Positions 3,542-40,100 are shown, numbered from the stretch's first letter. The stretch: 64,000 bases of DNA from an uncultured Chloroflexia bacterium (GCA_963842845.1 CAWJHZ010000007.1:8342-72341), one strand, 5' to 3'. A program made the numbers and translations. Notes: generated by a model from the sequence alone, not told the origin.

Positions 3542-3554
3542 TGGGTCCGAAGTC

Positions 3555-12295: not shown

Positions 12296-12403
12296 ATTAC
12301 TGCCCCCAAGCGCGCGTGGCCTGCACTCCAAGGCGTGGTGGGGACGCAAAACATGTGTGGTTGGTGTCGGCGATTCGGACTTCGACGAGCGTTGGACCGG
12401 GCG

Positions 12404-12434
12404 TTGACGGCGCTGCCTATTCTTTGCGTATAAT
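12404..12434 (+). promoter_or_regulatory. putative promoter of MmeI-like gene 1: TTGACG ... TATAAT with the -10 box only 7 bp from the ATG (leaderless or near-leaderless mRNA)
   Basis: TATAAT at 12429-12434, ATG at 12442. TTGACG about 19 bp upstream. The same TATAAT-7bp-ATG arrangement occurs upstream of the paralog at 33515. Confidence 0.35.
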
Positions 12435-12441
12435 CCGTCCG

Positions 12442-21354: not shown

Positions 21355-21490
21355 CTCCCTCCTCGAGGTTGTCGTCGCCGCTGGCGGCTGGATTATACGA
21401 CAACGTTCTTCGCCTTCGCAGCATCGCCTTGACTTTCGCGCACACTAATGCATCATGGTCATGATTCCACGTTTGCGAAGGAGAACGACC

Positions 21491-21715
21491 ATGACAGCGA
21501 CCATCATCCCCATCGGCGAGGAGGCAGCAGGCTGGGAACGCGCTCTCTACGCATTTCTTGCCGAAAAGGAGAGGCGGAGCGGCTCAAGACGCATAGTCGA
21601 AGGCTACTCGCGCACTCTCCAGCACTTCTTCGGGGCCGTTGGCAAGCCGCCGGACAGAATCACAAGCCAGGAGGTCTTCACCTGGGCTTACGGCAGAGGA
21701 CTCTCGGGCAACTGA
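21491..21715 (+). pseudogene. N-terminal fragment (about 75 aa) of a tyrosine integrase, near-identical to the N-terminus of the intact integrase at 37926
   Basis: MTATIIPIGEEAAGWERALYAFLAEKERRSGSRR(I/T)VEGYSRTLQHFFGA... matches 37926..38150 at both protein and nucleotide level, including about 60 bp of upstream sequence. It terminates after SGN, with no catalytic domain. Confidence 0.7.
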
Positions 21716-23173: not shown

Positions 23174-24025
23174 CTATGTTACTCGTACAGGTAGCATCTG
23201 GTGTGACAGAGCTATACTTCCCGTCCACGGCAGCACCGTCTCCGGCGCCGGTGGCCGGTAACCCAGTGAGCTGTGGGGACGCACCGCATTGTAGTGCCGT
23301 CGCCAGCGCTCCACAAGCACCTGCGCCTCAAGAAGCGTGTCGAAGATCTCCGGGTTCAACAGCTCGTCCCTGAGCTTGCCATTGAACGACTCGACGTAGC
23401 CGTTCTCCCAGGGACTCCCGGGCTCTATGTACAGGGTCTTTACTCCTACCCTGGTCAGCCACTCCCGTACTACCTTCGCCGTGAACTCCGTGCCGTTGTC
23501 GGAGCGCAGGTGGCAGGGAGCGCCCTTCTCCACAAAGAGCTGAGCGAGCACCCCCAGAACGTCATCGCTGGTGATCCTCCTCGCCACGTATATGGCTAGG
23601 CACTCCCTGCTGAACTCGTCGATAATGACCAAGAGCCTGAAGGTGCGCCCGTCCCTCGTCCGCGCCGCCACGAAGTCGTAGCTCCAGACGTGTCCCTTGA
23701 AGGCGGGTCGCAGCCTCACGCAGGAGCCGTCGGTGAGCCAGAGACGCCCCCTCTTGGGCTGTCTCCTTGGCACCTTCAGACCCTCAAGCCGCCACAGCCT
23801 CTCCACCCGCTTGTGGTTGACTCGCCAGCCCTCACTGTTCAACATCGCCGTCACCCTACGATATCCGTATCTCCCGTACTCCGCCGCCAGCTCTACCATC
23901 CGCCGCACCAGAAGGGGCTCGTCAGATGGCGGCGCTCGTCCTCTCCTCTGGGTCGAACGTATCTGATTCAACACCAAGCAGGCCCGGCGCTCCGATACCG
24001 CCTCCCGGCCGAGCGCGTCCCTCAC
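23174..24025 (-). CDS. IS3-family transposase OrfB (DDE / rve integrase core)
   Basis: 283 aa. rve-type core ...[43 protein letters not shown]...[10 protein letters not shown]...[25 protein letters not shown] (the D, D, E catalytic context). Confidence 0.8.
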
Positions 24026-24057
24026 GTGCTCGACCGCAAGACCCCTCTTGGCCGGGC

Positions 24058-24336
24058 TCAGAAGTTTCCCTGGGCCGCCTCACGCAGAATGGCGTTGTCC
24101 AAGGAGAGGTCCGCCACCAGCTTCTTCAGCCGGGAGTTCTCCCGCTCTAGGTCCTTAAGCCTCCTCGCCTGATCCCTGCCCAAGCCCCCGTACTCCTTGC
24201 GCCAGCGGTAGTAGGTCTGCTCCGCCACCCCCAGCCTCCGGCATACGTCGGACACGGCAACGCCCTGCGCTAGAGCGACCTCAGCCTGTCTCAGCTTGCC
24301 GATGATTTCCTCGGCCGTGTGCTTCTTGCTGCCCAA
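24058..24336 (-). CDS. IS3-family transposase OrfA (HTH)
   Basis: 92 aa. [48 protein letters not shown] helix-turn-helix. Directly upstream of orfB in a different frame. Confidence 0.75.
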
Positions 24337-24677
24337 TTCAGATGCCCCCTTTCTTCGGCCCAGTATCCGATATTCCCTCGCTGAAGAGTAACATTGGATC
24401 TGGACTCGTTTTCGGGGGGCAGGTCAAAGACAGCGCCAGCAGTCCTCGCGGCTGTGGACGGTGAGGTCAAAGTACACCCACCCGCCGCAGTGGGGACAGC
24501 GCCGGCAGCCGATACTAGCCACACTCGGCAATGTCATTGTCCGAGTTTAGGAGGTGCCCACTCTTCGTGCAAGGCTGCGGCATGCCTCACAGCCCTCCAG
24601 GTTGACAGCCGTGCTATGATCCGCGTGATTCACTTTCTGCATTCCCAACCTGTTCACCTCTGCCAAGGAAGTGTGCG

Positions 24678-25247
24678 ATGAGACGACTAATAGGCCTGAC
24701 GCTCGTGCTCGCGGCCTTCTTTGGCCTTACCTGCAGCAATGGGAACAAGAACGGCGGCCCGTCCTTCGCGCAATTGGTTATGTCTTTCAGGACTGCGACG
24801 TTCCACGGAAAGTATGACGTTCGGGTCAACAACACTCTGGCAGGCAGTATTGAATGGTTCCAACTGCCGCCTCGCACTCGACTGGACGTGTCGATTCTGG
24901 GGAGTACCGAGACGACCCTCCTCACGCCTGACGGCAACTTCAAATGTGATGCGGGCCAATGTCAGAACACTTCGGGCAGCGAGGAGACTCTCGCTAAGGG
25001 GTTCGACGAGCTTCTCACAGGGACGCGAGTAGTCAGCGACAGTCGGAGAATCATCGCCGAAAGGGATGGATTCTGCTTCGACGTGGAGGCCACACAGGAA
25101 ATCAACTTCAAGACGGGCGAAGTCTGTTTCGACGCCAACGGTTTCCCCCTCTTGCTTACAGGAAACGACGGAACTGGCGAAACCAGCATGGAAGCAATGG
25201 AGCTCAGCGACCGCGTCTCTTCAGATGCTTTCGCACTGCCCAACTGA
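24678..25247 (+). CDS. lipoprotein, cassette A of the secreted-protein array (no C-terminal sorting tail)
   Basis: MRRLIGLTLVLAAFFGLTCSNG signal peptide with lipobox. Preceded by the shared promoter-leader cassette and followed by the shared 3' element at 25284. Confidence 0.55.
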   Translation: MRRLIGLTLVLAAFFGLTCSNGNKNGGPSFAQLVMSFRTATFHGKYDVRVNNTLAGSIEWFQLPPRTRLDVSILGSTETTLLTPDGNFKCDAGQCQNTSGSEETLAKGFDELLTGTRVVSDSRRIIAERDGFCFDVEATQEINFKTGEVCFDANGFPLLLTGNDGTGETSMEAMELSDRVSSDAFALPN

Positions 25248-25417
25248 CCGCCCGTTCATGATCCAGCTAGACCGCCACGGCAATGTGTGAAACTGTCCAT
25301 GTGAGAACCGCCTCCGCTCAGGGGGAATTGGCCTAACCGACGGTTGACATCAGTGCTATAATCCTCTTGGTTCACTTCTGATTATCCCCGCCGACCCGCC
25401 AACAGGGAGGTTGTGCG

Positions 25418-26173
25418 ATGCGTGTTGCCGTTCCCCACAAAGGCCAGAGGGCACCTCTTCTGTTGTTCCTGCTAATACTTGGGCTTATGGCCACGTTGGC
25501 CGCAGCCATCCTCTGTTCATGGGTTTCGTCGCCCGGGGCGGTCGCTTCGGGCCCCCTCCACGGCATCAGCTTCCTCAAGGGCTGCGCCGGTCCTACGAAC
25601 GTGGGTGACCCGTACAGCTGCACGTTCCGCGTTTCAAACACTGTCGACCAGGCCAGTGACACCCTGACGATCACATCAGTTGTTGATGTCGTACATGCTG
25701 GCTCAGGCGACGTCTCTTCGGGCAATTTGCTGCCGGGCGCAACGTTCACTTTCACCGGAGGAGCATTCTGCAACGTCGGCCAAACGCTCTGCACGCTCCC
25801 GTTCGGCGCGTCTATCACCTTCACGACAAGCCATTACACCGTTCAGCCCACTGATCCGAACCCATTGACCGACAATGCTTCATTGACGTGGCAGGACACC
25901 TGTTCGAGCGGCTCTGGAAACTGCCCCGCGGGAGACCAAAGTGGCTCCAGTGGGTCTTGGTCGGCGGTGCAGACGCTCACGCCGACGCCGACGCCGACGC
26001 CGACAAGCACGCCTACACCGGTCCCTTACGGCTGGGTCGGCGGCATAGCGGAACCGCCCGATGTCGCCGAATCAGCGGGCGGATCATCTTCGCTACCATT
26101 CGCTGGCATCGCTGCAGGCGTCATTGCACTAGGAGCGGGCGGCTGGTATGCCAGGAGGCGCTGGCTCCACTAG
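25418..26173 (+). CDS. secreted protein, cassette B: N-terminal Cys-containing domain, PT linker, C-terminal sorting-signal-like tail
   Basis: Signal peptide. The domain is shared with the paralog at 33880..35247. The TPTPTPTPTSTPTP linker is followed by VGGIAEPPDVAESAGGSSSLPFAGIAAGVIALGAGGWYARRRWLH (motif, hydrophobic helix, basic cluster). Confidence 0.65.
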   Translation: MRVAVPHKGQRAPLLLFLLILGLMATLAAAILCSWVSSPGAVASGPLHGISFLKGCAGPTNVGDPYSCTFRVSNTVDQASDTLTITSVVDVVHAGSGDVSSGNLLPGATFTFTGGAFCNVGQTLCTLPFGASITFTTSHYTVQPTDPNPLTDNASLTWQDTCSSGSGNCPAGDQSGSSGSWSAVQTLTPTPTPTPTSTPTPVPYGWVGGIAEPPDVAESAGGSSSLPFAGIAAGVIALGAGGWYARRRWLH

Positions 26174-26200
26174 CAATCCGCAGCGAAGACCGGCATCGCC

Positions 26201-26226
26201 GTGTGTGAAACTGTCCACGTGAGAAC
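26201..26226 (+). repeat. conserved 3' cassette element GTGTGTGAAACTGTCCACGTGAGAAC (one of five copies; others at about 25284, 27521, 29130 and an orphan at 39856)
   Basis: Exact or near-exact 24-26 nt repeat found 25-35 bp after the stop codon of each cassette gene. It is co-conserved with the last codons (CGCTGGCTCCACTAG) and a CAACCCGCAGC spacer. Confidence 0.7.
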
Positions 26227-26414
26227 AGGGTCATGGCAGGGAGAAGAGGGATGACTAACCGCTGATTGACATCCTCGCCCAACTCAGAGTACCTTGCGGG
26301 AGCCTGGGCAGGAGCAGTCCTCTGTCATGATGGCACAAGCGACTTGCGCTAGGCATCAGGTTACGATCTGCCGAAGTCGTCCCCGCCCTTGCTTCTCAAG
26401 AAAGGGATTTCAAC

Positions 26415-27494
26415 ATGCCACTCAAATCGCCCCCCACAAGTGTACGTCTTCGATTACTGGCAGGTCTCATGGCAGTCGCCGTGCTATCGTTGGTCGCAGG
26501 TGTCACGCCCTCCTGGCCACAGCCCGTACACGCCGCATTTCCCGGGATCAACGGCAAGATCGCTTTTCAGAGCGACCGCAACGGCGCCTATCAGATCTAT
26601 AAAATGAATGCTGACGGTAGCGGTCAGACTCGTTTGACGAACAATGCGGCCAACGATACAACGCCCGCATGGTCTGCTGATGGTTCCCAAATCGTCTTCG
26701 GCAGCACGCGTGACGGCAACCCCGAGATCTACAAGATGAACGCTGACGGTACGGGGCAGGTACGCCTCACTAACAACACAGCCAACGATCTTTGGCCATC
26801 GTGGTCCCCCGACGGCTCCAAGATCGTCTTCACCAGCGACAGGGACGGCCAGTTCCACACCTACGTCATGAACGCCGATGGCAGCAGTCAGGCTCTTCTC
26901 GGCCCGGGTAACACCGACGACGAGTGGCCGGCCTGGTCGCCAGACGGGTCGAAGATAGCGTTTGTCAATGGGAACGGGGTCATTTACGAGCTCTATACGA
27001 TGAACGCCAACGGCACGGGTCGTACCCAACTGACCTTTGACGGCGCCATCAACACATCGCCTGACTGGTCTCCAAACGGATTGAAGATAGCGTTTGGCAC
27101 CGATCGTGGGGGGAACCGCGACATCTACCTGATCAGTGCCAGTGGCGGTGCCGAGACACGCCTTACCAACAACGGCGCTGTCAACGGCAACCCGGCCTGG
27201 TCTCCCGACGGCCAGCGCGTCGTCTTTTCCTCCAACAACCAGGTCTATGTCATGAACGCGGATGGTAGCAGCCAGACGCGTCTGACCAACGACTCAGCAG
27301 ATGATCTGTCGCCTGACTGGCAGCCGATCAAGCTGGCGGCCGTCGGTGGTATCGCAGAGCCTCCTGACATCACCCAATCAACGAGGGGATCATCGTCACT
27401 GTCGTTCGGTGCTCTTGCTGGCATCGCTGCAGCAGGAGTCGTGGTAGTCACTGTAGGTGGGTGGTGGTACGCACGGAGGCGTTGGCTCCGATAG
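26415..27494 (+). CDS. secreted TolB-like (PD40/WD40-like) beta-propeller protein, cassette C, with the same C-terminal sorting tail
   Basis: Repeats of the form ...DG..IVF.S.RDGN.EIYKMNADGSGQ.RLTNN.A.D..P.WSPDG... (at least six blades). Tail VGGIAEPPDITQSTRGSSSLSFGALAGIAAAGVVVVTVGGWWYARRRWLR. Confidence 0.65.
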   Translation: MPLKSPPTSVRLRLLAGLMAVAVLSLVAGVTPSWPQPVHAAFPGINGKIAFQSDRNGAYQIYKMNADGSGQTRLTNNAANDTTPAWSADGSQIVFGSTRDGNPEIYKMNADGTGQVRLTNNTANDLWPSWSPDGSKIVFTSDRDGQFHTYVMNADGSSQALLGPGNTDDEWPAWSPDGSKIAFVNGNGVIYELYTMNANGTGRTQLTFDGAINTSPDWSPNGLKIAFGTDRGGNRDIYLISASGGAETRLTNNGAVNGNPAWSPDGQRVVFSSNNQVYVMNADGSSQTRLTNDSADDLSPDWQPIKLAAVGGIAEPPDITQSTRGSSSLSFGALAGIAAAGVVVVTVGGWWYARRRWLR

Positions 27495-27668
27495 CAACCC
27501 ACGGCTAGACCGCTACAGCAGTGTGTGAAACTGTCCACGTGAGAACGCCTACAGGACAGGGTGAATTAGGCGCATTGACAAGGGTTCAAACGGTGCTATA
27601 ATCTCCGCATTGGTGGCTCGTTACTGATTATCCCCCGTCATGGATTCCCGCCCGATAAGGAGAGTTGA

Positions 27669-29108
27669 ATGCGCACTGTGACTCCTTCAGTGGGGTTGCG
27701 GGTTTTTCTGGCTACGATGACCTTGGGCGTACTTCTGATCCTGTTGACGACGGCGTCGGAGAGCCGCGCCACCGGACCCTGGACAGTACTCCAGCCTGCA
27801 CCCGTCGCTCGTATGGGATTGCATACCGTAGCCTACGACAATAACGGACATCTCTTTGTTACCACAGGGCTGCTCGACTGGACCACCCCCACGGACGGCT
27901 TCTATCGTTACGATATCGCCACAGATTCCTGGACTCAGTTAGCATCTACACCCCAGCGGATGTTTGACAGCAAATCGGCCTACGATGGCGCAGGGCACAT
28001 ATACCTCATTCAAGGAGGGAATTACTCTTTTACTGCCGTACACAACTTCTATCGGTATGATATTGCCTCGAACACTTGGTCCCAACTCCCGCCGGTTCCA
28101 CTGGACTACGTGGCTGAGGCAGCGTCCTGCTCTGATGGGCGGCACATGTTCGTTACCGGCGGGAATCTGTACGATGTCCAGCACTTCTACTCCTTTGATA
28201 TGACGACGCTCGTTTGGACTGAATTGGCTTCGCCTCCGGGGATCATGTCTGGAGACTCCTTGAGATACGCCTGGCAGAACGCGTGCGCAACCGATGGGCA
28301 GGGCGTGTATCTGTTCGGCGGGGATACCGTTAACGGCGATGGGGACCATCCCATTGTCTACACGAATCGGCTGGTTCGATATGACATAGCAACTAACCAA
28401 TGGTTCCGCCTGGCTGACGGCCCAGAGATTATGATAGACAACGTGGCGGTCTATGATGGTCATCATCGCATACTCGTTTCAAGAGGCTTCCAGCCCCTTG
28501 AGAGCGGCGATTGGGTACCAACAGCCCAGTTGTACTCGTACGACATCAGCTCTGACGAGTGGACACAAATGCCGGATGCGCCCGGCCCTATGAGCGGGAA
28601 CAGTGGTGCCTACGATACCAACGCTGACGCTTTCTTTATCACTGCCGGCCTTGGCGATTCCGACGCAGCTTCCCTCTACGAGTTCGAGGAGAATCTCGTT
28701 CCACCGACCAATACGCCGACTCCCTGCCCTGGATCAGGGTGCCCAACTTCAACGGCTACGAGCTCACCCACGTCGATGCCTAGTCCATTACCTACGTCGA
28801 CGCCCAGTCCTTCGCCCACGTCGACGCCTAGCCCATCACCCACGTCTACGCCTAATCCATCACCTACGTCCACCCGCAGCCCATCCGCCACGCCAACACC
28901 TCCGCCTTCGGCAACCGCCAAACCCTCACAAGGCGTCGGAGGCACGGTGATGCTCCCGCCAGCCGCTGTGGTTGCTGCCTCCGATACCACGGCTGAGGAC
29001 TCCGGCTGGTCAGGTGGCGCGTATGCGGCGCTGGCTGTCGGCCTAAGTGCGGCGTTTGCGGCGCTTGGCGTCGGCGGCTGGTACGCAAAGAAGCGCTGGC
29101 TCCACTAG
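27669..29108 (+). CDS. secreted Kelch-repeat beta-propeller protein, cassette D, with P/S/T-rich linker and the same sorting tail
   Basis: Kelch-like blades (YRYDIATDSWTQLASTP, YRYDIASNTWSQLPP, YSFDMTTLVWTELASPP, VRYDIATNQWFRLADGP, YSYDISSDEWTQMPDAP). Linker SPTSTPSPSPTST... Tail ...GGAYAALAVGLSAAFAALGVGGWYAKKRWLH. Confidence 0.65.
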   Translation: MRTVTPSVGLRVFLATMTLGVLLILLTTASESRATGPWTVLQPAPVARMGLHTVAYDNNGHLFVTTGLLDWTTPTDGFYRYDIATDSWTQLASTPQRMFDSKSAYDGAGHIYLIQGGNYSFTAVHNFYRYDIASNTWSQLPPVPLDYVAEAASCSDGRHMFVTGGNLYDVQHFYSFDMTTLVWTELASPPGIMSGDSLRYAWQNACATDGQGVYLFGGDTVNGDGDHPIVYTNRLVRYDIATNQWFRLADGPEIMIDNVAVYDGHHRILVSRGFQPLESGDWVPTAQLYSYDISSDEWTQMPDAPGPMSGNSGAYDTNADAFFITAGLGDSDAASLYEFEENLVPPTNTPTPCPGSGCPTSTATSSPTSMPSPLPTSTPSPSPTSTPSPSPTSTPNPSPTSTRSPSATPTPPPSATAKPSQGVGGTVMLPPAAVVAASDTTAEDSGWSGGAYAALAVGLSAAFAALGVGGWYAKKRWLH

Positions 29109-29465
29109 CAACCCGCAGCCAACACGGGAGTGTGTGAAACTGTCCACGTGGGCACCCACACCAAGGGAAGATGTTGTCACCGCCAGACGGTCTGCGGAAC
29201 AGGTGATCTGCCCCACAAGCCGCGCCTGTCCGCCGGCCACGCCCTGCGTGTTCAAGGACTTCTGGCAGGGCTGGCGGGCCCGAGATGTGAAAATGGATCT
29301 ATTCGCCACTTGACAAGCGCCTACAAGATGTTATACTCCGCTTTGCTGGTGGAAATTCCCTGAATCCCCGCCGAACTCGAAGTCCTCGCCAACAGAGAAT
29401 TTGTGTGGCGGCGAGTTCTTATTGCTTGAATGCCGCTTGCGCGGTTCCTATTCGGAGGTGGCGAA

Positions 29466-30530
29466 ATGACAAAGAGACTTCTCGTCGCGGCTATCATCTT
29501 CGGGTCTTTCATGGTATCGGCGGCCGGAACCACGGCCAGCCCAGCTTATGGTTTTGTCCAAGTCAGCGGAGGTCTGGACTACACATGTGCTATGGAGGCG
29601 AATGGCAGCCTCATTTGTTGGGGGGGAATCTACGGGGCGTCTTATCCCTTTGCGGATATGTTCAGCCAAATCAACGCCGGTGATGACCATGGTTGTGGAG
29701 TCAGAGTTGACGGTACCTTGGAGTGTTGGGGTGATAATTCCGTCGGGCAATCAACACCTCCCTCCGGCACCTTCACTCAAGTTAGCGCTGGCTTCCGGTT
29801 CACTTGCGGGGTAAGGACGAATGGTGTCATAGCCTGCTGGGGAGCCAATGATGAAGGTCAGTTGAACACTCCATCTGGCACGTTCGGCCAGGTAAGCGCT
29901 GGCGGCTACCATGCCTGTGGCTTGCGAACGGACGGGACTCTGACCTGCTGGGGTTGGGACAACTTTGGGCAAGCGTCACCTCCGAGCGGCACTTTCGGGC
30001 AAATTGATGCAGGATATGAGCAAACATGCGGAGTGAAGACTGACGGCACTATGGTTTGTTGGGGCAATAATCAATACGGACAGTCCACTCCGCCGGCGGG
30101 GACATTCACGCATGTCGCCTCAGGTTATATTCACACTTGCGGAATAAAGACCAACGGCACTATCGCTTGTTGGGGATACAATGGCTTTGGACAATCAACG
30201 CCTCCGTCTGGCGTCTTTGCTCAAATCGGGGCCGGGTACGACCATACCTGCGCCATAAACTTGAGCGGAGCAATTGCCTGCTGGGGAGACAATGAATCGG
30301 GGCAGGCAACGCCACCAGTACTGCCACCTCCCCCATCTCCGACACCCGGCAGCGTCGGCGGCAAGATACTGCTTCCTGTGGCGTTGGACCCTCAGCAAGA
30401 TTTCGATGGGGCAAGAGGAGCTTCTGGAGGGTCGGGTATCCCGCTGGCTGCGTGGCCTGTGCTGGCCAGTGCCCTGGGAGGCGTTTTGGCGGCGGCTGGC
30501 TGGCGTGCACGGAGGCGCTGGCTGAGGTAG
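29466..30530 (+). CDS. secreted RCC1-repeat (BLIP-II-like) beta-propeller protein, cassette E, with the same sorting tail
   Basis: RBS GGAGGTGG then ATG (MTKRLLVAAIIFGSFMVSAAG). Seven repeats of the form ..CG...DGT..CWG.N..GQ..PPSGTF.Q..AG. Tail VGGKILLPVALDPQQDFDGARGASGGSGIPLAAWPVLASALGGVLAAAGWRARRRWLR. Confidence 0.65.
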   Translation: MTKRLLVAAIIFGSFMVSAAGTTASPAYGFVQVSGGLDYTCAMEANGSLICWGGIYGASYPFADMFSQINAGDDHGCGVRVDGTLECWGDNSVGQSTPPSGTFTQVSAGFRFTCGVRTNGVIACWGANDEGQLNTPSGTFGQVSAGGYHACGLRTDGTLTCWGWDNFGQASPPSGTFGQIDAGYEQTCGVKTDGTMVCWGNNQYGQSTPPAGTFTHVASGYIHTCGIKTNGTIACWGYNGFGQSTPPSGVFAQIGAGYDHTCAINLSGAIACWGDNESGQATPPVLPPPPSPTPGSVGGKILLPVALDPQQDFDGARGASGGSGIPLAAWPVLASALGGVLAAAGWRARRRWLR

Positions 30531-30691
30531 CCCGATTCCAGCGCCTCGCGAAGACCGCTGTTGGGTCGCTCAAAAAAGCCATCGCGACCCCATATGACAC
30601 TAAGTGTGGATGTTGATGGCTAGGTTCGCCATTCCAGCCCAAGGCCGGGCCGCCCGACGAATGCCCCCTCGAGCGCCAGACCCGGCCTCAG

Positions 30692-33515
30692 CTACTGCGC
30701 CGGTTCCCGCTCAAGGTTGAGGCGCAGCAAGCGGGTGACGATCTCAGAATCCGACAGCGCGTCAGACGGCTCCTGCCACCCGTAAGCGGCGAACACCGCC
30801 TCGTCCAGCTTGCGATGCGCGTTTACCAGCCACATGGGGCGCTGGTTGTAGAGCTTCGTAAGCGTGCGGCGTTCTGACTTCTTCACGCCCGGCTTTTCCT
30901 CCGGCGCCTTCAGCCAGTTCTGGCGGGGCTCTTCCAACTCCCGCGCCGCCTCTGCGATTGCGCGCTGCTGCTCTGGCGATGGTCTTGGGAACGAGAACGT
31001 CTCGAAACAGGTTGTCGGGGTATAACGGAAACCGCTCTCCACTTCTCGCAACTGGGTGCCGGTGGCGCGCGCCCACACCTCATGAGCGCGGGAGTGCACC
31101 ACGCCGAAGAAGTAGTCATCATCGCGAGCGAAGACTATGGTGGCCTGGTTGCAGAGGACCTCGGGAGCCACCCAGACGAAAAGACGGTGCTTCGAGTGGC
31201 AGGGCGTGGCTATGAATCTCCACATGCCCTGCAACGCCCTTCTCATGTTTACCCTCGGCTCCCCGTAGATCCACCACCGGTCGGCGTATGCCTTACGTCT
31301 GTTTCTCTCGCGGATTGGCTTCACAACAGAGCGCAGGTGCTCGAAAGGCATTTCGTACTGGGCCGCTTGTTCCTCTCTTGTCCCAGGAGGGAAGTCGATT
31401 GTCCACAAGCCCCGTGGGCGCTGGACCAGATCGACGGCGCTCATCAAAGGTCTTACGATGTCGCTGTTTGGGCGCCCGTTAGGATTCCTAGACCTCAACA
31501 TGCGCCTGGCAAGTTCCGCCGAGATGTCAAACCCCGCCTTCGGTGACGGCCCTTGGAAGCAAATCCTCAGGTTCTCTCTAAGAGGTCGAGCCATCGTCAG
31601 AATCGACACCCGCCGTCAAGTTGGCGTTGATAACTGCAACTTGGTGCCCGTCGAGCGTCCGCTCTAGCTCTGAACCCTTGTCGAAGCCGAGCATCGAGAC
31701 GTGGACCGCCGCCCCGTCCAGAATCCAAGGCCTGTCCGAATAGGCCAAGAACATCTCGCCCGTCTCTTTTATCCGCTCAAGAACGCGCCTATTTGCGCCG
31801 CCCCGAATGCCCTGTGTTGCCAAGAGTCCTGCTCTGGTTGATCGTTCGTCGGCAATCATCTCACGTGCTTGTTCAAACCAATAACAGCAGAGGTCGCTGA
31901 AATGGGGAAGCCGGTCACCATACAGCGAGAACAACGCTTCGACGTATTCGCCGCCAAGATGTTTGCGCAACAAGCTTCCCCCCAAGAACGGAGGATTTCC
32001 GACGATTACGTCCGCTTCCGGCCACTCAGGGATACGCGGCTGGCTGGGGTCCGAGAGGTCAACGATTGCGTCCCTCATCTCTATCTGGTCGAGCGGTTGA
32101 AGGATGGGAGTCTCGTCCGTGAACGGGATCACGTTGCGGTGCTTCCATTGCAGGTAGCCTATCCAGATGACTATAGACGCCAGCTCGCGGGCGTACTCGT
32201 TGATCTCGATGCCCATCAGCTGGCGCGGGTGAACGCGCGGGGAGAGTGGAACGTCGTATGACGCCGCGAAGGCGATAACCTCCTTCTCCAGAGCCTTGAG
32301 GAGAGCCAGGGAGACGTAGAGGAAGTTGCCGGAGCCGCAAGCGGGGTCAAGGACACGGATGGTCGCCAGCCGCTCATGAAACGTCTTTAGAGCGCCGGCG
32401 ATGCGGCTGTGCAGCGTCTCCGGCTTGAACCGCCGGGAGGCCGCGTTCTCCGATAGGTCCTCCGCCGCCACCTTGATCTGGTTCCATTCCCGTCTGAGAG
32501 GGGCCATCAGCACCGGCTCCACTATTAGCTCGATGTCGACACGAGACGTATAGTGCGCGCCGACCTGTCGCCGCTTCTCACGGTCAATAACGCGCTCAAA
32601 AAGAGTGCCGAAGATTGACGGCTCGACATCGGCCCAGTTGAGGCTGTCCAGGTCCTCCAGCAGGCGGACATGCTCGCCGTGGATCTCGTCGGGAACGTCG
32701 CTGTCCTCGAACAAGCGGCCGTCGAAGTAAGGGACGGAGTGCATGAGGAACTTGCCGCCCTTCCGCATGACCTCGAAGAGCTCCGACAGGTTCTCGCGGA
32801 ATGCGGCGGGGTCGTCCTTGTTGACGTTGATGACCTCGCTAAAGGTCTCGCGCGGCAACAGGCCCACGTCTGTCGCGAACATGCAGAACATGACCCGCGT
32901 CACGAAGCGAGCGATGCGCATGTCCTCTACCTTCCATTTGCGCAGGTCATCGGTGATGCGGCCGAAGAGCTTGGCGGCCTCCTGTGTGATCTGCTCGGTA
33001 GTCCGGAGAGGCTTCAGGCGCTCGGGCTCCTCGAAGAGCGCCTTCAGGACTTGGAGGGCTGTGAGCTTCGGGGCGTCGGCAGCGGGCCCGCCGTAAGTGG
33101 TGACTTCGACCGGCTCGTCCAGCGCGATGTCGGCGTTGCGGAAGCGGTAGATCCAGGTCTCTGTGTTGGTCCAGTTGGTGTGGACTTCGAATCGTTCTAT
33201 GTCGCAGACAACGAGCAGCGGCGGGTTACCCAGCGCCTCGCGATACGTCTGAACCTGCTTGTAAGCAATCCCGAGGTCTTTGTGTTTGCCCTTGTACTCC
33301 CAGGCGAAATGGTTCTTGAGCCATACGTCCGCGAACCCGTCGCCGTCAGGTTTCTTCGCGCCTTTCTCAAACGCGAAGAAAGCGCCGCTGGGGTCGGCCT
33401 CGTTCGGGGTCTGCTCGTTGAGCAACCGGCACAGGTCAATGAAGTGCTCCTGCGCAGCCGCATTTTCGCTCTGGGTGGAGGCGGCCCACTTCTTGACGAA
33501 TCCAAGGGAGTCCAT
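30692..33515 (-). pseudogene. second MmeI-family Type IIL RM gene (paralog of 12442..15228), interrupted by a +1/-1 frameshift near 31580-31610 in the TRD; possibly inactive or a sequencing artefact
   Basis: Two overlapping ORFs (31578..33569 and 30692..31609) together reproduce the full architecture: nuclease block, VLDPACGSGNFL, GNPPF, TRD, conserved C-terminus. ATG at 33515 is preceded by TATAAT 7 bp upstream. The frame switches at ACGGCGGGTGTCG (GGG run). Both frames align with copy 1 on either side of the switch. Confidence 0.7.
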
Positions 33516-33879
33516 GAATGCGATTATAGCGAAGGATCGTGGAACCGCCAATGTGGGCTTTTGCCGCAAGGAGTTATTTCAGGACCGACACGATCAGGTC
33601 ATCGTGTGCGGTCCCGCGCACAACGGCTCGGGATGTCGTCAGGCGACGCCCGCCTCGACAGACAGCGCATGAACGGTTCGCGAGTCGAGCGCGCTGACCG
33701 CGTCACGCCGCGCACGCCAGTTGGGGGTTCTTGCGCTCGCCCGACTACGATCTCTTCGATGTCGCCCCTCACCCTCGGCTGGGATAATCGCCATGCGAAA
33801 CCAAGCAAACAGTTGGGGAAGGCGTCTGTCGCCTTCCCCAGCTAGTGTCTTTGGTTTAGATGTGGCTTCTACCGGTTGA

Positions 33880-35247
33880 TTACCACCACCACCAGAAGTG
33901 ACGGTCAGGCCCGTAGCACTGCCTGTCGTGCGACCATTGAATCACGAAGCCAGTGCAAACCTTCGGTCGCGACGGCGTGGCCGTAGGCGTCTTGGTCGGT
34001 TTCGGCGTCGCCGTTTGACATTGACATGGCGGCTTTGTTGTCGGCGTGGCCGTGTGTGTCGGGCTCGGCCCTCCAGATGGAGTCGGTGTGGCCGTAGGCG
34101 TCTTGGTCGGTTTCGGCGTCGCCGTTTGACACGGCGGCTTTGTTGTTGGCGTCGCCGTGACCGTGTTTGTAGCCGTCGGCGTCGCAGTATCGGTCGGCGT
34201 GGCCGTGTCCGTGGCCGTCGGCGTCGCAGTATCGGTCGGCGTGGCGGTGTCCGTGGCCGTCGGCGTCGCAGTATCGGTCGGCGTGGCCGTGTCTGTGGCC
34301 GTCGGCGTGGCCGTGTCTGTCGGCGTGGCCGTGTTCGTAGCCGTCGGCGTGGCCGTGTCTGTCGGCGTGGCCGTGTCCGTGGCCGTCGGCGTGGCCGTGT
34401 CTGTCGGCGTGGCCGTGTCCGTGGCCGTCGGCGTCGCAGTATCGGTCGGCGTGGCCGTGTCCGTCGGCGTGGGCGTGGGCGTGTTCGTAGCCGTCGGCGT
34501 GGCCGTGTCCGTCGGCGTCGGCGTGGCAGTATCGGTCGGCGTGGCCGTGTCCGTAGGCGTCGGCGTGGCTGTATCCGTGGCCGTCGGCGTGGCTGTGTTC
34601 GTGGCCGTCGGCGTGGCTGTATCCGTGGCCGTCGGCGTGAACGTACTCGTCGGCGTCGGCGTGAGCGTCTGCACCGCCGACTGAGACCCACTGGAGCCAC
34701 CTTGGTCTCCCACGGGGCAGTTTCCAGAGCCGCTCGAACAGGTGTCCTGCCACGTCAATGTTGCATTGTCGGTCAATGGGTTCGGATCATTGGCCTGAAC
34801 GGTGTAATGGCTTGTCGTGAAGGTGATAGATGCGCCGAACGGGAGCGTACATAGCGTCTGCCCACCGTTGCAGGATGCTCCGCCAGTGAAAGTGATGCTT
34901 GCGCCCGGCAGCAGGTTGCCCGAAGCTACGTCGCCTGAGCCAGCATGTACGACATCCACCACTGATGTGATCGTCAAGGTGTCACTGGCCTGGTCAACCG
35001 CGTTCGAAACGGAGAACGTGCAGCTGTACGGGTCACCCACATTCGTAGGACTGGCGCAGCCCTTGAGGAAGCTGATGCCGTGGAGGGGTCCCGAACCGGT
35101 GTTCGCCTGAGCCCAGGGGGACCAAATGGCCGTCGCGGCGATCATGGCTAAGCCCACCGCCAGGACCAAGGCGGCTCCTCCCCGTCTTCCGATCACCCGG
35201 GCAGCGCGCCTTGTGCTGTGGTCGTCGCTCGTATACCTCATTTCCAC
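33880..35247 (-). CDS. secreted protein, paralog of cassette B domain, with a long ([14 protein letters not shown])n linker; lacks the sorting tail and ends ...HFWWWW
   Basis: The N-terminal 200 aa are about 85% identical to 25418..26000 ([10 protein letters not shown]...[16 protein letters not shown]). Then about 180 aa of perfect PT-type repeats. Two KPPCQ segments at the C-terminus. Confidence 0.55.
34150..34690. repeat. tandem DNA repeat (about 42-bp unit, roughly 12 copies) encoding the [14 protein letters not shown] linker
   Basis: Periodic GCCGTCGGCGTGGCCGTGTCCGTGGCCGTCGGCGTCGCAGTATCGGTCGGCGTG... read directly. It produces mirror-image artefactual ORFs on both strands (VAVGVAVS..., [10 protein letters not shown]...). 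Confidence 0.7.
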
Positions 35248-35691
35248 CTCTTCTACGATGTGGCGCGGCGTTCCAATGCCGCGGAGTCCGACTGTTGCTG
35301 GACGCCGTCATCACCAGCCTCCGCCCTTCCACCGATCATAAGCACCAGATCGTTTCGGGTATATCGGTATTTTCCCTTATTTGCTGCGGTCGTCTTTGAC
35401 CAAAGCAAAGCCGGGACGACGCGGTCCTGGCGTCCGCTTCTGGCTACGCATCGATAGCGTATCGCCTTGACTTCCCCGCACACTAATGCATCATGGTGGG
35501 CGCCTTAGACCGGCTTCAATGGCGCGATCAGTGGCGCGCCTCCCGCGAACCCGGCGCTTGAGACATCCATGGCGACGGGCGGAGACGCGACTTTGGCGTG
35601 AAGCTTGAAAGATGGACAAGGGGCTGACAGCGAACTGAGCTCACGGTTACCTAGGCAGCAACTGGGTCGGCGAATGGCCCGCAGCGGATAG

Positions 35692-37671
35692 TCAACCAGT
35701 CGGCGCCCCGGGCCCGTAGATCACGACGTCATAGAATGCGCCGTAGGTGAGACCTAGCTTGCCACCGCTTGGGCCATCCGGGTCGACAATGCTGTAGGAG
35801 TCGCCTGATTTGCCTGAAAGTACGATCCAATGCGGTATGCCTAGCTTGCCCTTCACTTCAACGATCGGCGGTCTCCCCTGAGACAGCGCGTTGTCGATGG
35901 CCTGTTCCCTTGCCGCCAGATCATATTGGCTTGTCCGCAGGATCGTCGGCTCGCCGACATATCCACCAGTTGAGTTGGCGGCGACCTCCCAAGAGATTTT
36001 GCAGCCTCCGTAGCCACCGTGGGCCGTGAGCCATCTGTTGAGATTGTCCGGGCTGACCGGTCCGTATCCCTGAGTCAGCTGAGGCGTTCCGTAGTAGGCG
36101 AGCACATCTGCAACGGATGTCAGCGCGCACCCCGCGACTGCAACAGTAGGGCACCCGGACTTGCCAGCGAGATGATCATTGCCCCATCCCAGATCCCTTT
36201 GCTTGAAATCGGGTACCCCTGTGTACTTGATGGTGGCATAGTCGTACCCAGTGCCCAGGCCAAAGGAGTCACCTGTCACGTAGACATTGCCCGCGCCGTC
36301 CACGGCTATGGCCCGGGGTTCGTCAATTCCCTTGCCGGGGCCGTTGTAGCGTTGTGCCCACTGCTCGCTCCCTTTTGGCCCGTATTTGATAGTCGCGAAC
36401 TCGTCCTCGCCGCTAGACACAAACGAGGAGCCGGTCACGTATGCGTTGCCTAGTGCATCCACAGCGATGGCCGAGGCCACGTCATCGCCGTTGGCCGGGC
36501 CGTCATAGCGGGCCACCCACTGCCTGTCGCCGTCCGGCCCGTACTTGATGGTGGCGTAGTCGTCGTGACCACCAGAACCTCCAGAGCCACCTGTGACGTA
36601 GACATTGCCCGAACCGTCCACGGCAATGTCGTTGCCTGAATTCCATGCGTGACGTGCATCCGGACCATGGTAGTAGCGCTCCCACACCATATGCCCGTCT
36701 GCCGCTCCGAACTTGACGGTTACACAGTTGACGGCGGCACCTTCGACCCAGCCTGTCACGTACGCGTTCCCCAGAGCGTCGACAGCAAGAGCCTGGACGC
36801 CCCCCTGGAAACCCAGGGGTGGATAGTAACCCACCCACAGCAGGCTCCCGTCCGGCCCGTACTTCACGATGGCGAAGTCGTAGCCATAGTTCGCGGAGGG
36901 ATCAATATCATAGCCCTGACCCGCCACGTACACGTTGCCAGCGCTGTCTATTGCGATGTCCCGGGCGTGGTAATCGTAGCCGTCCGGGAGCCTGAAGCGA
37001 CGTGCCCACAACTCGCTCCCGTCCGGTCCGTATTTGACGGTGGCGTAGTCGTACAAGTTGTCGGGGCCCTGAGATGACCCCGTCACATATGCGTTCCCTT
37101 GACGGTCCACGACCAGGCCAACAGGCCGATCGGACCCAGCACCTCCACTGCTGCACGGGCCGGAGCCGTTACCAGGGCCGTTGCATCGTCGCGTCCACAG
37201 CTCCCTCCCGTCCGGTCCGTACTTTATGGTGAGGTAGTCATTCCCCGTATCGACGCCCTCTGACAAGCCTGTGACGTACACGTTTCCCTGGTTGTCGACT
37301 GCCACAGCGACGGCCTCGTCAGAGCCGTTGGCCGAGCCGTTGTATGACTTTGTCCACAGAACCGTCCCGTCTGATGCGTACTTCGCTGTGGCGTAGTCCG
37401 TTCCGCTGACAGAGCCTGTGGAGTAGCCTGTGACGTATACGTTGCCTGAGTTGTCCACAGCAACCGCCGCGCTACGATCGTCGCCACTGGCAGAACCGTC
37501 GTAGCGGGCCACCCAATCTCGCGTAACCACGCCGCTGCCGTTCGCGACGAGGCTCTCGCCAGGGACTGGACCGGCACGGGCACGCGAAGGGCCCAATAGC
37601 AGCCCGCCGACAACCGCCAGCACAGAGAAGAGGTATTGTAGGGTGGTTCGCCCAATTGGAGCGTGCATCAT
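35692..37671 (-). CDS. secreted SBBP-type beta-propeller repeat protein with a C-terminal putative papain-like/C39-like cysteine peptidase domain
   Basis: Signal peptide. At least eight repeats YDG...DD.A.AIAVD..GNVYVTG.S.G. The C-terminal region has CPTVAVAGCALTSVADVLAYYG ... GIPHWIVLSG (candidate Cys and His). Domain call is tentative. Confidence 0.45.
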   Translation of the reverse strand: MMHAPIGRTTLQYLFSVLAVVGGLLLGPSRARAGPVPGESLVANGSGVVTRDWVARYDGSASGDDRSAAVAVDNSGNVYVTGYSTGSVSGTDYATAKYASDGTVLWTKSYNGSANGSDEAVAVAVDNQGNVYVTGLSEGVDTGNDYLTIKYGPDGRELWTRRCNGPGNGSGPCSSGGAGSDRPVGLVVDRQGNAYVTGSSQGPDNLYDYATVKYGPDGSELWARRFRLPDGYDYHARDIAIDSAGNVYVAGQGYDIDPSANYGYDFAIVKYGPDGSLLWVGYYPPLGFQGGVQALAVDALGNAYVTGWVEGAAVNCVTVKFGAADGHMVWERYYHGPDARHAWNSGNDIAVDGSGNVYVTGGSGGSGGHDDYATIKYGPDGDRQWVARYDGPANGDDVASAIAVDALGNAYVTGSSFVSSGEDEFATIKYGPKGSEQWAQRYNGPGKGIDEPRAIAVDGAGNVYVTGDSFGLGTGYDYATIKYTGVPDFKQRDLGWGNDHLAGKSGCPTVAVAGCALTSVADVLAYYGTPQLTQGYGPVSPDNLNRWLTAHGGYGGCKISWEVAANSTGGYVGEPTILRTSQYDLAAREQAIDNALSQGRPPIVEVKGKLGIPHWIVLSGKSGDSYSIVDPDGPSGGKLGLTYGAFYDVVIYGPGAPTG

Positions 37672-37925
37672 GCTGCTCCCGCGGCTTTTGAGAGTGTCCC
37701 GATCCTAGATGATGTCCTTTCGATCCCCTTATCGGAAGAAAGGGCCGAATCTAGAGCGGGTGTAACCCTGTAGACCTGCTCAGCGATGCCGGTAGGTGGA
37801 GAGTGGAGCGATCATTGACTAGCAGAGTCTCTCGCTGCGAGCATCTGCTCTTGAGGACTGGCTTGACTTCCGCGCACACTAATGCAATATGGTCGTGATT
37901 CTACGTTTGCGAAGGAGAAACGACC

Positions 37926-38858
37926 ATGACAGCAACCATCATCCCCATCGGCGAGGAAGCCGCTGGCTGGGAACGTGCTCTGTACGCATTCCTTGCCGAA
38001 AAGGAGCGACGCAGCGGCTCAAGACGAACAGTCGAGGGTTATTCCAGAACCCTCCAGCACTTCTTCGGGGCCATCGGCAAGCCGCCCGACCGGATCACGA
38101 GTCAGGAGGTCTTCGCCTGGGCCTACGGCAAGGGGTTGTCTGGCAAGGAGCCCTCGGCAATCACGATCGGGGCCAGGCTTGCCTGCCTCAGTTCCTTCTA
38201 CCGCTTCCTGATCCGCATGGAGATCGTCTCCGCCAACCCCTGCGACCAGATCGAGCGACCCAAGCCCTCGCCCAGCCCACCGCGGGGGATCAGCGCCGAG
38301 GGGATCAGAAAGCTGCTCACCGTCATCCCCGAGACGCCGGCCGGTCTGCGGGACCGAGCCATCATCCTCACACTTGTCTTGACGGGTCGGCGCCGCGCAG
38401 AGGTCTTCAACCTGAAGGTCGGCGACCTCATTCGAACCGATGGCCTCTTCTACACCTACCGCGGCAAGGGAGGCAAGCAGGGGAAGCGGGAACTGCCTTT
38501 ACCCGCATTCGAGGCGATTAAGGTGGCGCTGGCCGCATTCGCCAAGGACCTCGACACGATGAAGCCCGGGGAGTCACTCTGGCCATCGCCCGGTCGGAGC
38601 GGCACTGGCATCACCAGCGGCACCTTCTATGGCAACCTGCAGCGCTACCTGCGCAAGGCGGGGCTGCCGCCCGCCGGCGTCCACATCTTCCGCCACAGTG
38701 CCGCCAAGCTACGGCGAGACGTCGGAGAGTCGGTGGAAGATGTCAGCCTTTTCCTCGACCACAGCTCGCTGGCGGTCACGACGGTCTACCTGCGGAGGCT
38801 CGAGGGGCAAGAGGACAGGAATTGGCAGAAGGTGGCGATGGCACTGGGTATCTGTTGA
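37926..38858 (+). CDS. tyrosine-type site-specific recombinase / phage integrase family
   Basis: 310 aa. Catalytic region ...GLRDRAIILTLVLTGRRRAEV...HIFRHSAAKLRR (HxxR)...LAVTTVYLRRL (Tyr). Its N-terminus and 5' flank are duplicated at 21426-21715. Confidence 0.8.
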   Translation: MTATIIPIGEEAAGWERALYAFLAEKERRSGSRRTVEGYSRTLQHFFGAIGKPPDRITSQEVFAWAYGKGLSGKEPSAITIGARLACLSSFYRFLIRMEIVSANPCDQIERPKPSPSPPRGISAEGIRKLLTVIPETPAGLRDRAIILTLVLTGRRRAEVFNLKVGDLIRTDGLFYTYRGKGGKQGKRELPLPAFEAIKVALAAFAKDLDTMKPGESLWPSPGRSGTGITSGTFYGNLQRYLRKAGLPPAGVHIFRHSAAKLRRDVGESVEDVSLFLDHSSLAVTTVYLRRLEGQEDRNWQKVAMALGIC

Positions 38859-38965
38859 ATACAGCGACTGAGCAGTCACAGAGACGAATCGCACAGGGCC
38901 GGCCGCGAGGCCGGTCTTCTCGTTCTAAGCGCGCGGTCGATAATGCCAGTAGGAAGGAGCTAGAG

Positions 38966-39322
38966 ATGACGAACGCCGCCAGGGATGAAAAGGACATCGA
39001 GCCGCTCTCGGACGCTGGACAAGTCCGCAACGACATGGTTTCTTGGGTCGCGGACTTGGCGCAACAGCATAAAGAGGACGCGGCCAATCCGGACTCAAGA
39101 CTCTCTCTCCTACACCTAGACGAGGGGCATCTGCGTCATGCCTCTCCCTCCCACGTCAACGAGTGGCATCTGATCCAGGCCTCCCGATTGGGGAAATTGG
39201 CGGACTTTCTCGAAGCCCTGCCAGACGACGACCCGCTCATCCAGTCAGAGACACGGCAGGCCATGCGAAAGTGGCACGACCAACGGATCGAGGAGTGGTT
39301 CGACTATATGGCCAAGTTTTGA
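38966..39322 (+). CDS. hypothetical protein
   Basis: RBS AGGAAGGAG, 8 bp, ATG. 118 aa, acidic. No recognisable motif. Confidence 0.35.
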   Translation: MTNAARDEKDIEPLSDAGQVRNDMVSWVADLAQQHKEDAANPDSRLSLLHLDEGHLRHASPSHVNEWHLIQASRLGKLADFLEALPDDDPLIQSETRQAMRKWHDQRIEEWFDYMAKF

Positions 39323-40100
39323 GCGGGGGAGAGCGGCGACGACGCTCAACCAGTACCGTGCCTATCATCGAGGCCAAAACGTCGATTATCTCACTGAGAG
39401 GCGAGAAAGGTGTCAGGTGTGCGTAGACTCGGAGTGCTGGCAATAGGTACAGCTATTCTTGGCTGGGTGGTTAACAACCTGCTGAGAACGGATGAGGACA
39501 AGGCTGTTTCATCAGTGATGGGGCCGCCACGCCACGAAGATGCGAATTCTAACGGGGCGACTTTCCCGCGAGAAGCGGAACCAGCCTCTCTAGCAGCTGA
39601 CCTCCCTCCTGGACAAGCAGACCCTCTCGACGAACCTGCGAATGTCATTCCCCTGGAAGCCATGCGCGCGCATCCCCCCCGGAATCGTCCGCCTTCGCCG
39701 CCGAACGAAAACGGAAATGCGAGAATGAGACGCGCTCGAAATGCCGTCGATAAACGCTTCCGGCAATTGCCGGAAAAGGGTGATCGACGCAAGAGAGGCG
39801 CAGCTTAGCCATCGCGGGTCTGGCTCCACTGGCAGCCCGCAGCTAAGACGCGACCGTGTGAAACTGTCCACGTGCGAACACCTACGGTAACCCCTGCAAT
39901 GAGACCGCTCACTAATAGGCGGCCTCCCTTGAAGACGTTGGCGGACGCTTGGAGTGTGACGCTGGCGTCCTCATTGCGAGCGAGTATTCAGATAAGCTTG
40001 GTTTCTATTCGAGATGCGCTACCAGTTTCTATCTGCGTCGTGGTAGAATCGAGCGCAGGATGAGGCGGGGCATCCGAATCTATCCTCGGAGGTCAACGAT

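Follow-up and report, generated by a model that had tools for sequence, protein, structure and literature searches.

A stretch of 64,000 nucleotides from an uncultured Chloroflexia bacterium (GCA_963842845.1, CAWJHZ010000007.1:8342-72341; hereafter the window, with positions counted from its first letter) carries five genes between 24678 and 30530, all on one strand, whose products begin with signal-like N-termini. Four of these proteins end in the same tail, composed of a VGG motif, a small-residue spacer, a hydrophobic helix and a basic cluster, which has the build of a C-terminal sorting signal. Such signals set what a bacterium displays on its surface, and the known ones (LPXTG, PEP-CTERM, PGF-CTERM, GlyGly-CTERM and MYXO-CTERM) each brought with them their own class of processing enzyme. 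Here we describe the array and its tail, the wider family to which the tail belongs, and a membrane-anchored caspase-fold protein, encoded beside tail genes elsewhere, that is likely to process it.

Five genes and a shared C-terminal tail

All five open reading frames (ORFs; genes A to E) listed in a preliminary description, which had been made from the sequence alone, were recovered at the same positions, and the array is real. Gene A (24678..25247, + strand) encodes 189 aa with a signal-like N-terminus and without the tail. Its product had been called a lipoprotein, a label that is doubtful because its cysteine is preceded by G-L-T, as read from the sequence, which is not a canonical lipobox. 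Gene B (25418..26173, +) encodes 251 aa, with an ectodomain followed by a Pro/Thr linker; the ectodomain, earlier termed a "Cys-rich domain", has six cysteines. Neither A nor B matched any Pfam or NCBIfam family. The three modules that had been predicted downstream were borne out by Pfam: gene C (26415..27494, +; 359 aa) encodes a PD40/TolB-like beta-propeller (PF07676, 1.7e-54), gene D (27669..29108, +; 479 aa) a Kelch propeller (4e-25) followed by a long PSPTST linker, and gene E (29466..30530, +; 354 aa) an RCC1-repeat propeller (RCC1_2, 4.7e-56). Hydrophobic signal-like segments are found at the N-termini of B, C, D and E, and linkers rich in Pro, Thr and Ser in B, D and E. The gene D protein has an identical copy in a public assembly (P0036 and L027).

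Proteins B to E all end in VGG-x-x-x-x-P, a small-residue spacer, a hydrophobic helix and W[YR]A[RK][RK]RWL[HR], and in all four the tail finishes 0 residues before the stop codon. A six-frame translation of the whole window confined this ending to these four ORFs, in agreement with the preliminary count of four tailed genes out of five. The tail of B reads VGGIAEPPD...GGWYARRRWLH (encoded at 26036-26170, +), that of C VGGIAEPPD...GGWWYARRRWLR (27342-27491, +) and that of D VGGTVMLPP...GGWYAKKRWLH (28935-29105, +), while the tail of E, VGGKILLPV...AGWRARRRWLR (30354-30527, +), is divergent.

The tail defines a lineage-restricted family

A profile built from the four tails retrieved 24 short metagenome proteins that end in this way, including one named as coming from a Dehalococcoidia metagenome-assembled genome (MAG). 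When a broader profile was scored against 1.84 billion representatives, 1,846 clusters (at 50% identity) were found at E<=1e-3, of which 298 reached E<=1e-10. In the 150 hits listed the match ran to the C-terminus or stopped a few residues short of it, and for 95 of 120 hits the Trp was placed 9 residues before the end. A scan for GWYARRRW over one genome per species gave 26 confirmed loci, all in Dehalococcoidia/Chloroflexota MAGs and encoding proteins of 160-770 aa; several tail genes are present at some loci (three at L003, four in the window). The tails are present in relatives, and do not arise only from duplication within this array.

The proteins that bear the tail are diverse. Among 113 full-length members, 57 Pfam families were distributed across the ectodomains, including FG-GAP, beta-helix, NHL, subtilase, M23, M10, TSP3, RCC1, Kelch and dockerin, and of the 97 members with an initial Met, 71 have a hydrophobic N-terminal stretch. 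The consensus of the tail is [P/A]VGGIAELPD[V/L]A, then 12-25 Ser/Gly/Ala-rich residues that often contain GSGWS or GGSSSPP, then YAALAGGLAAAAVAL.AGGWYARRRWLR, with YAALAGG preceding AGGWYARRRWLR. Within the motif, conservation is 93% for V, 67% for I, 69% for A, 79% for E, 59% for L, 69% for P and 47% for D, and VGG and Trp lie a median of 47 residues apart. All three parts of a tripartite signal are present: the motif, an Ala/Gly/Val/Leu-rich segment of ~20 residues, judged to be transmembrane (TM) from composition and hydropathy only, and RRR. Measured against the criteria for tripartite C-terminal sorting signals set out by Haft and co-workers (10.1101/2023.06.07.544157), the tail agrees in position, in its three parts and in its occurrence on paralogues, and departs in the spacing between motif and helix. 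The sorting-signal-like grammar proposed in the preliminary description is thus upheld by the placement of motif, helix and Arg cluster at the extreme C-terminus of many unrelated ectodomains in a restricted lineage. These results support the conclusion that the tail behaves like a lineage-restricted C-terminal sorting-type domain of unrelated secreted proteins.

The family has no counterpart among catalogued domains. No Pfam or NCBIfam 20.0 model covered the tail when whole window proteins, isolated tails and the 113 members were scanned, and nothing rose above a cut-off, in line with the earlier remark that the motif was not recognised as any named -CTERM family. The closest catalogued model was NF058571 (GVDTG_CTERM), a weak match in 11 of the 113 members at E<=0.01 (best E 2.8e-4), which gave 9.8-16.2 bits on window sequences against a cut-off of 29. 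On the window proteins and tails only profile positions 14-44 of this model were aligned, so that the region of the GVDTG motif itself was left unaligned. For LPXTG/sortase (TIGR01167, PF04203) the best score was 15.4 bits against a cut-off of 15.9, from the helix and Arg part only and with no LPXTG motif, and for MYXO-CTERM 14.5 bits against a cut-off of 20 on window sequences. The PEP-CTERM, GlyGly-CTERM, PGF-CTERM and other named -CTERM models gave no match at E<=10 on window sequences, and no named -CTERM model of that set was among the top NCBIfam families of the 113 members.

At the DNA level, in the tail-coding sequences of the window (26147-26164, for example) and of L001-L047, Arg codons 1 and 2 of WYARRRW are AGG or AGA in 29/43 and 40/43 distinct tails, respectively, whereas AGG and AGA together make up a background of ~14% in the long ORFs of these loci. 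The bias creates a conserved, Shine-Dalgarno-like AGGAGG string ~15 nt before the stop codon, which could reflect shared ancestry or could act as a signal for translational pausing or coupling.

A candidate processing enzyme beside tail genes

No gene for a processing enzyme was seen among the window ORFs examined, as had been noted before; specifically, Pfam and NCBIfam searches found no sortase, exosortase, rhomboid or CPBP-type protein among 33 selected window ORFs, multi-TM ones included. In annotated contexts of tail proteins on long contigs, an unannotated gene of ~275 aa lies directly 3' of the tail gene. This conserved gene, encoding 260-300 aa, was found 27-199 nt 3' of the tail gene at seven loci (L012, L024, L028, L029, L035, L041 and L043), and the ectodomains encoded 5' of it at these loci are essentially unrelated. 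A first screen of neighbours, by all-against-all clustering of ORFs from the window and L001-L027, returned no family present in three or more loci; it missed this gene because only two of the loci in that set carry it. At least 1,694 homologues of the product were found, without Pfam hits and called "hypothetical" wherever they are named, and the few named sources are Dehalococcoidia or Chloroflexota.

The association was then measured as gene neighbourhood at loci that were chosen without regard to the tail. Using the profile of the candidate enzyme alone, 80 metagenome loci were fetched, of which 67 had at least 250 nt of upstream sequence. At 58 of the 67, a tail ORF ends just 5' of the enzyme gene on the same strand; the other nine comprise four divergent tails (..ALYRWRRYLR), two relics and three loci with none. 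The gene-neighbourhood link between tail and enzyme is very strong, at 58-62 of 67 loci, and the enzyme gene adjoins a tail gene in about 90% of its own loci. Clustering of the enzymes from these metagenome loci gave 61 groups at 90% identity and 37 at 80%, and 40 ectodomains encoded beside them fall into 20 unrelated clusters. Within the 452 kb of enzyme loci there are 81 tail ORFs, 61 of which are the one adjoining the enzyme gene.

An AlphaFold2 (AF2) model of the enzyme (pLDDT 87, pTM 0.77) has a caspase-like alpha/beta fold, with which Foldseek agreed; the top hit was DdvA, a transmembrane protein with a CHAT domain. At the sequence level, CHAT (PF12770) scored 12.5-13.7 bits against a threshold of 24, no membership of MEROPS families C11, C13, C14 or C25 was found, and there were no NCBIfam or PDB sequence hits. 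The hallmark of clan CD peptidases is a His and then a Cys, each placed after a hydrophobic core strand. In the candidate enzyme, an invariant His114 follows strand 108-112 (LIILRVH114[S/A]) and an invariant Cys194 follows strand 187-192 (IIMMGC194), positions that we take to be the canonical catalytic ones of the clan. Both residues are invariant in 40 diverse sequences, and the outside domain as a whole contains invariant LR.H[S/A], MGC.GL, W, H.D and GPDP elements. The N-terminus is strongly basic and is followed by one TM helix, a topology in which the catalytic domain and the tail motif both face the outside of the cell. On the strength of the model and these residues, the candidate enzyme is likely to be a membrane-anchored clan CD peptidase of caspase fold, and its gene neighbourhood makes it the likely processor of the tail. 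Full-text literature searches returned no account of the tail, nor of any sorting enzyme of clan CD in Chloroflexota.

Two further observations concern the gene pair. Tails adjoining the enzyme gene (L048-L127) tend towards the variant VGG[IT][VT]E[LVF]xVDSS..PSARA.., and the VGGIAELPD form is found more often in tail genes that are dispersed; the variant may mark a dedicated first substrate or partner. In one metagenome homologue of the enzyme (P0260), the gene call begins inside the preceding tail (..ASAWYARRRWLKQTARLICYPGSG-MSPREQKK..), which implies either in-frame read-through of the tail gene into the enzyme gene or a missing stop codon.

Repeated DNA between the genes of the array

The preliminary description had each gene preceded by the same promoter and leader, and the array joined by a shared 3' element. 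The element has a 19-nt core, GTGTGAAACTGTCCACGTG, of which the window holds five copies (<=3 mismatches) against 0 expected in 100 shuffles; four copies are exact and one has a single mismatch, and all share one orientation. Copies follow the tailless gene A (25285-25303), gene B (26203..26221, +, exact), gene C (27523-27541) and gene D (29132..29150, +, exact), so the element is indeed shared, but none follows gene E. The fifth copy is an orphan (39811..39874, +) with no tail gene before it, in which an exact core (39856-39874) adjoins a tail-end relic, CTGGCTCCACTGGCAGCCCGCAGC; the relic of the last tail codons reads CTGGCTCCACTGG... This orphan lies 3' of an unrelated small ORF and ~230 nt 5' of a 403-aa gene without a family (40101-41312), and looks like the footprint of a lost or rearranged tail gene.

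The promoter and leader are less uniform than had been claimed. A canonically spaced sigma-70-like pair occurs only before D (27575-27602, +; TG-extended, 12/12 matches) and before E (29310..29337, +; TTGACA-16-TATACT, TG-extended, 11/12 matches), and gene C keeps only the TTGACA. The shortened 7-nt spacer described for gene B is present (TTGACA-7-TATAAT, 25344-25362, +), yet it is not unique to B: a promoter-like TTGACA-(7 nt)-TATGAT with a TGn extended -10, also of non-canonical spacing, was read from the sequence before gene A (24602..24620, +), a site that a consensus promoter scan did not report. Leader boxes precede B (TTCACTTCTGATTATCCCC, 25371-25389, +) and D (CTGATTATCCCC, 27624-27635, +), and CTGATTATCCCC is exact only before these two genes.

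Self-comparison showed that the A-B (25266..25389, +) and C-D (27504..27635, +) intergenic regions are one continuous homologous block of ~130 nt with 77% identity, which spans the 3' element, the promoter and the leader. The ends of the tails and the DNA downstream of them are 60-83% identical among B, C and D. Elsewhere, the 19-nt core was found at none of 36 other loci (<=4 mismatches), and the DNA 3' of 19 tail genes in 17 other loci had nothing in common. The shared 5' and 3' DNA is explained by local paralogy, through duplication and gene conversion of the intergenic block, tail end included, in a region prone to rearrangement, and is not part of the sorting system. The earlier suggestion of a cassette system for diversifying surface proteins is not supported: the repeated DNA is, among the loci checked, confined to this genome and only partly shared, and the region is rich in duplications and mobile genes and without integron features.

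Other roles for the 3' element were considered. It was rejected as a terminator or structured RNA, having no T-run and only a weak hairpin without covariation, and no Rfam match was found at E<=1 in 24000-41000. A reading as a CRP-like half-site was dropped because its distance to the next promoter varies from 33 to ~160 nt.

A model for tail processing

The domain family and its distribution, the fold of the enzyme with its conserved His and Cys, the topology and a near-obligate adjacency are what we observe. We consider it probable that proteins B to E are Sec-exported surface proteins with a lineage-specific sorting tail that is processed by an extracytoplasmic caspase-fold peptidase encoded elsewhere. 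In such a pathway, the hydrophobic helix and the GGWYARRRWL stop-transfer cluster would hold the exported protein in the cytoplasmic membrane and thereby present VGG-I-A-E-(L/P)-P-D outside, on a flexible spacer of 12-25 Ser, Gly and Ala residues. The single-pass clan CD Cys-His peptidase would recognise and cut the tail outside the cell, at or near the motif. Because small residues abound in both helices, recognition could proceed by packing of one against the other. The ectodomain would then be released, or transferred to a surface acceptor, with one enzyme serving many substrates. Cleavage of the tail, its site and the fate of the product are what we infer from the sequences. By analogy with caspase tetrapeptides, the Asp of ELPD was considered as the P1 residue, and this assignment was dropped because the Asp is just 47% conserved. 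The central idea of the preliminary description, an unnamed sorting-type tail whose enzyme is encoded elsewhere, holds.

A more specific version can be advanced tentatively, as possible rather than probable: the peptidase may act as a transpeptidase, single-pass and with its caspase fold extracytoplasmic, and may form a further mechanistic class of prokaryotic "sortase". It would take off the VGGIAELPD...GGWYARRRWLR tail and couple the C-terminus thus exposed to an acceptor, be it a lipid, a glycan, the S-layer or the wall. Dehalococcoidia-class Chloroflexota would then possess a bacterial parallel to the GPI-transamidase chemistry of eukaryotes (GPI, glycosylphosphatidylinositol), acting on dozens of surface proteins per genome.

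Several points count against the probable reading as a whole. The signature motif does not abut the TM helix, the Ser/Gly/Ala spacer lying between them, and the conserved Glu of the family is missing in D (VGGTVMLPP) and E (VGGKILLPV), whose tails may be poor substrates or degenerate. No homologue of the enzyme is present among the ORFs of the 64-kb window. A few related sediment studies supplied many of the 80 metagenome loci, which makes the lineages less than fully independent, and the adjacency could reflect a dedicated two-protein partnership and not general many-to-one sorting. The assignment of His114 and Cys194 as the putative catalytic pair is by sequence and secondary-structure position, not by residue-level superposition. 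Finally, the 19-nt core is better conserved than the adjoining coding DNA, which suggests that the core has some function.

The tail might instead be a permanent type I C-terminal membrane anchor with a conserved juxtamembrane stalk that is never removed, in which case the clan CD protein would act on its own neighbour only, or as a regulated sheddase, or as a non-proteolytic partner. The separation of motif and helix by 12-25 residues suits such an anchor, the conservation of WYARRRWL beyond the need of a generic stop-transfer sequence hints at a retained cytoplasmic function, and the four tail genes of the window, like most others, do not lie beside an enzyme gene. We nevertheless regard a permanent anchor as unlikely: the extracellular motif is conserved like the anchor itself (V 93%, E 79%, P 69%), the enzyme keeps its His and Cys across all 40 diverse sequences, the adjacency tracks the tail and no particular ectodomain (20 clusters among 40), and known sorting systems also pair one enzyme with few adjacent and many dispersed substrates (10.1101/2023.06.07.544157). 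Processing by a known enzyme class encoded elsewhere (sortase, exosortase/archaeosortase, rhombosortase or CPBP/myxosortase), with the clan CD neighbour coincidental or accessory, is very unlikely. It would draw on the sub-threshold resemblance of the TM-plus-Arg part to LPXTG_anchor (15.4 against 15.9 bits), LAETG, GVDTG_CTERM (the weak match in 11/113 members) and MYXO-CTERM, but these matches are to a generic helix and basic cluster and leave the signature motif uncovered, and the tail is without an LPXTG, PEP, juxtamembrane Gly-Gly or Cys motif. When the ORFs of the window and of 27 tail-gene loci were clustered all against all, no other family recurred among the neighbours; in further loci, found by tail or enzyme, that have precomputed Pfam annotations, these enzyme families do not occur; and it is the clan CD gene that neighbours a tail in about 90% of its loci.

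Two other explanations concern the array. An integron-like or shufflon-like cassette system, with the 3' element as a recombination site that swaps surface modules, is more doubtful still. Its appeal lies in the perfect core of four copies, with one mismatch in the fifth and a single orientation throughout, in the tail-end relic adjoining the orphan core, and in a tyrosine recombinase gene (37926-38858) and a large serine recombinase gene (42156-43751) within 14 kb. The tyrosine recombinase, however, is Xer-like, with 39 bits against a cut-off of 265 on the integron-integrase model TIGR02249, and nothing like the imperfect palindrome of attC was found in the element, which folds only into a 5-6 bp hairpin (-4.5 kcal/mol) without covariation. 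Each gene has its own promoter-like sequence, and the element follows the tailless gene A, is missing after E and does not accompany tail genes in the other genomes checked. While integron arrays resemble this one in having same-strand genes of unrelated function with a repeated element between them, the present array differs in its lack of an integron integrase and of attC-type structure, in its own promoters and in the restriction of its element to one genome. An origin of the tails purely through local tandem duplication, without wider conservation, would fit the identity of 60-83% that B, C and D share in their tail ends and the DNA downstream, and is refuted by the 1,846 clusters and by 26 loci in other MAGs with unrelated ectodomains and flanking DNA.

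Comparison with known sorting systems

The proposed tail-and-peptidase system has much in common with LPXTG/sortase, PEP-CTERM/exosortase, PGF-CTERM/archaeosortase, GlyGly-CTERM/rhombosortase and MYXO-CTERM/myxosortase. As in their substrates, a motif is followed by a TM helix and an Arg cluster at the very end of proteins with N-terminal signal peptides. The tail is likewise carried by many paralogues per genome on unrelated ectodomains and restricted in lineage; a single conserved peptidase gene sometimes lies beside a substrate gene, and the pairing is many-to-one. The tail differs in its VGGIAELPD motif, its spacer of 12-25 residues and the unusually conserved cytoplasmic GGWYARRRWLR. The candidate enzyme, predicted to be a single-pass protein with an extracytoplasmic caspase fold, is unlike sortase (C60), the polytopic exosortases, rhomboids and CPBP proteins.

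Two clan CD enzymes, PorU and GPI8/PIGK, are by analogy already engaged in this kind of job. PorU is a C25-family peptidase that has been proposed as the sortase of type IX secretion (PMC4560394). It works at the outer membrane of diderms within a large secretion machine, unlike the candidate enzyme, with which it has no relationship at the sequence level. Its substrates in Bacteroidota carry the type IX secretion C-terminal domain signal, a folded beta-sandwich of ~80 aa without a TM helix, which is unlike the tail described here. The comparison with PIGK/GPI8 (C13, clan CD), the catalytic subunit of GPI transamidase, is closer in topology: PIGK/GPI8 is, like the candidate enzyme, a single-pass membrane protein with its caspase-fold domain on the non-cytoplasmic side, although no sequence homology between the two was detected. 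The GPI-anchor signal consists of a cleavage-site motif, a hydrophilic spacer and a C-terminal hydrophobic helix. It shares the grammar of motif, spacer and helix with the tail, which differs in ending in a basic cluster that GPI signals do not have. Homologues of the remaining transamidase subunits and of GPI synthesis were not seen, no search aimed at them having been made.

At least about 1,800 protein clusters carry the tail, in a lineage of soils and sediments that is abundant and largely uncultured and whose envelope biology is almost unknown. Neither the tail nor the candidate enzyme has a Pfam or NCBIfam model, and a hidden Markov model of the tail would annotate a surface proteome of proteases, propellers, adhesin-like repeats and dockerin proteins. 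The pair of genes is also a directly testable system, consisting of a soluble ectodomain and a tail peptide. Should the enzyme be a transpeptidase, the caspase fold would have come into use for protein anchoring several times independently, with monoderm-type bacteria joining Bacteroidota (PorU) and eukaryotes (GPI8), and the enzyme could provide a new tool for peptide ligation beside sortase and the legumain-type ligases.

Other features of the window

The surroundings of the array are rich in duplicated and mobile DNA. A paralogue of gene B lies inverted at 33880..35247 (- strand), with 92% DNA identity over 448 nt and no tail; its Pro/Thr linker has grown to ~250 residues of TATDTATPT-type repeats (Thr/Pro/Asp/Ala), and the protein ends in ...HFWWWW-stop. 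An inverted pair of N6-adenine methyltransferase/restriction-like genes (12316-15228, +, and 30692-33569, -; 85-88% DNA identity) brackets the region holding the array, the left copy being one ORF of 970 aa and the right copy split into ORFs of 663 and 305 aa. A direct repeat (21428-21699 and 37862-38133, 87% over 273 nt) takes in the 5' end of the Xer-like recombinase gene together with the DNA upstream of it, and the left copy of the repeat heads a 226-aa ORF without a family hit. Two types of insertion sequence (IS) are present, an IS3 transposase at 23174-24336 and an IS1595-family (ISXO2-like) transposase at 52953-54251 (+).

A comM/YifB-like Mg-chelatase gene (43714-44778, -) is truncated at ...AAMNPCPC, where the serine recombinase gene ends. 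The exact coincidence suggests an integrated element; the missing 3' part of comM was not found in the window. At 56694-58086, an ORF for a six-TM protein (280 aa) and a divergent ORF for a two-TM protein (181 aa) have low GC3 (GC content at third codon positions) and no Pfam match. The six-TM ORF (56694-57536) was considered as an intramembrane protease and set aside, as it gave no family hit and contained no recognisable motif.

Additional secreted proteins are encoded on both sides of the array. A secreted protein of 659 aa (35692-37671, -) has seven SBBP beta-propeller repeats, a faint peptidase C10-like match at its C-terminus and no tail, and belongs to the same cluster of surface-protein genes. 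At 851-4124 (+), two secreted, tailless proteins contain TSP3 repeats and a dockerin domain, respectively, both of which are common among tail-bearing proteins elsewhere.

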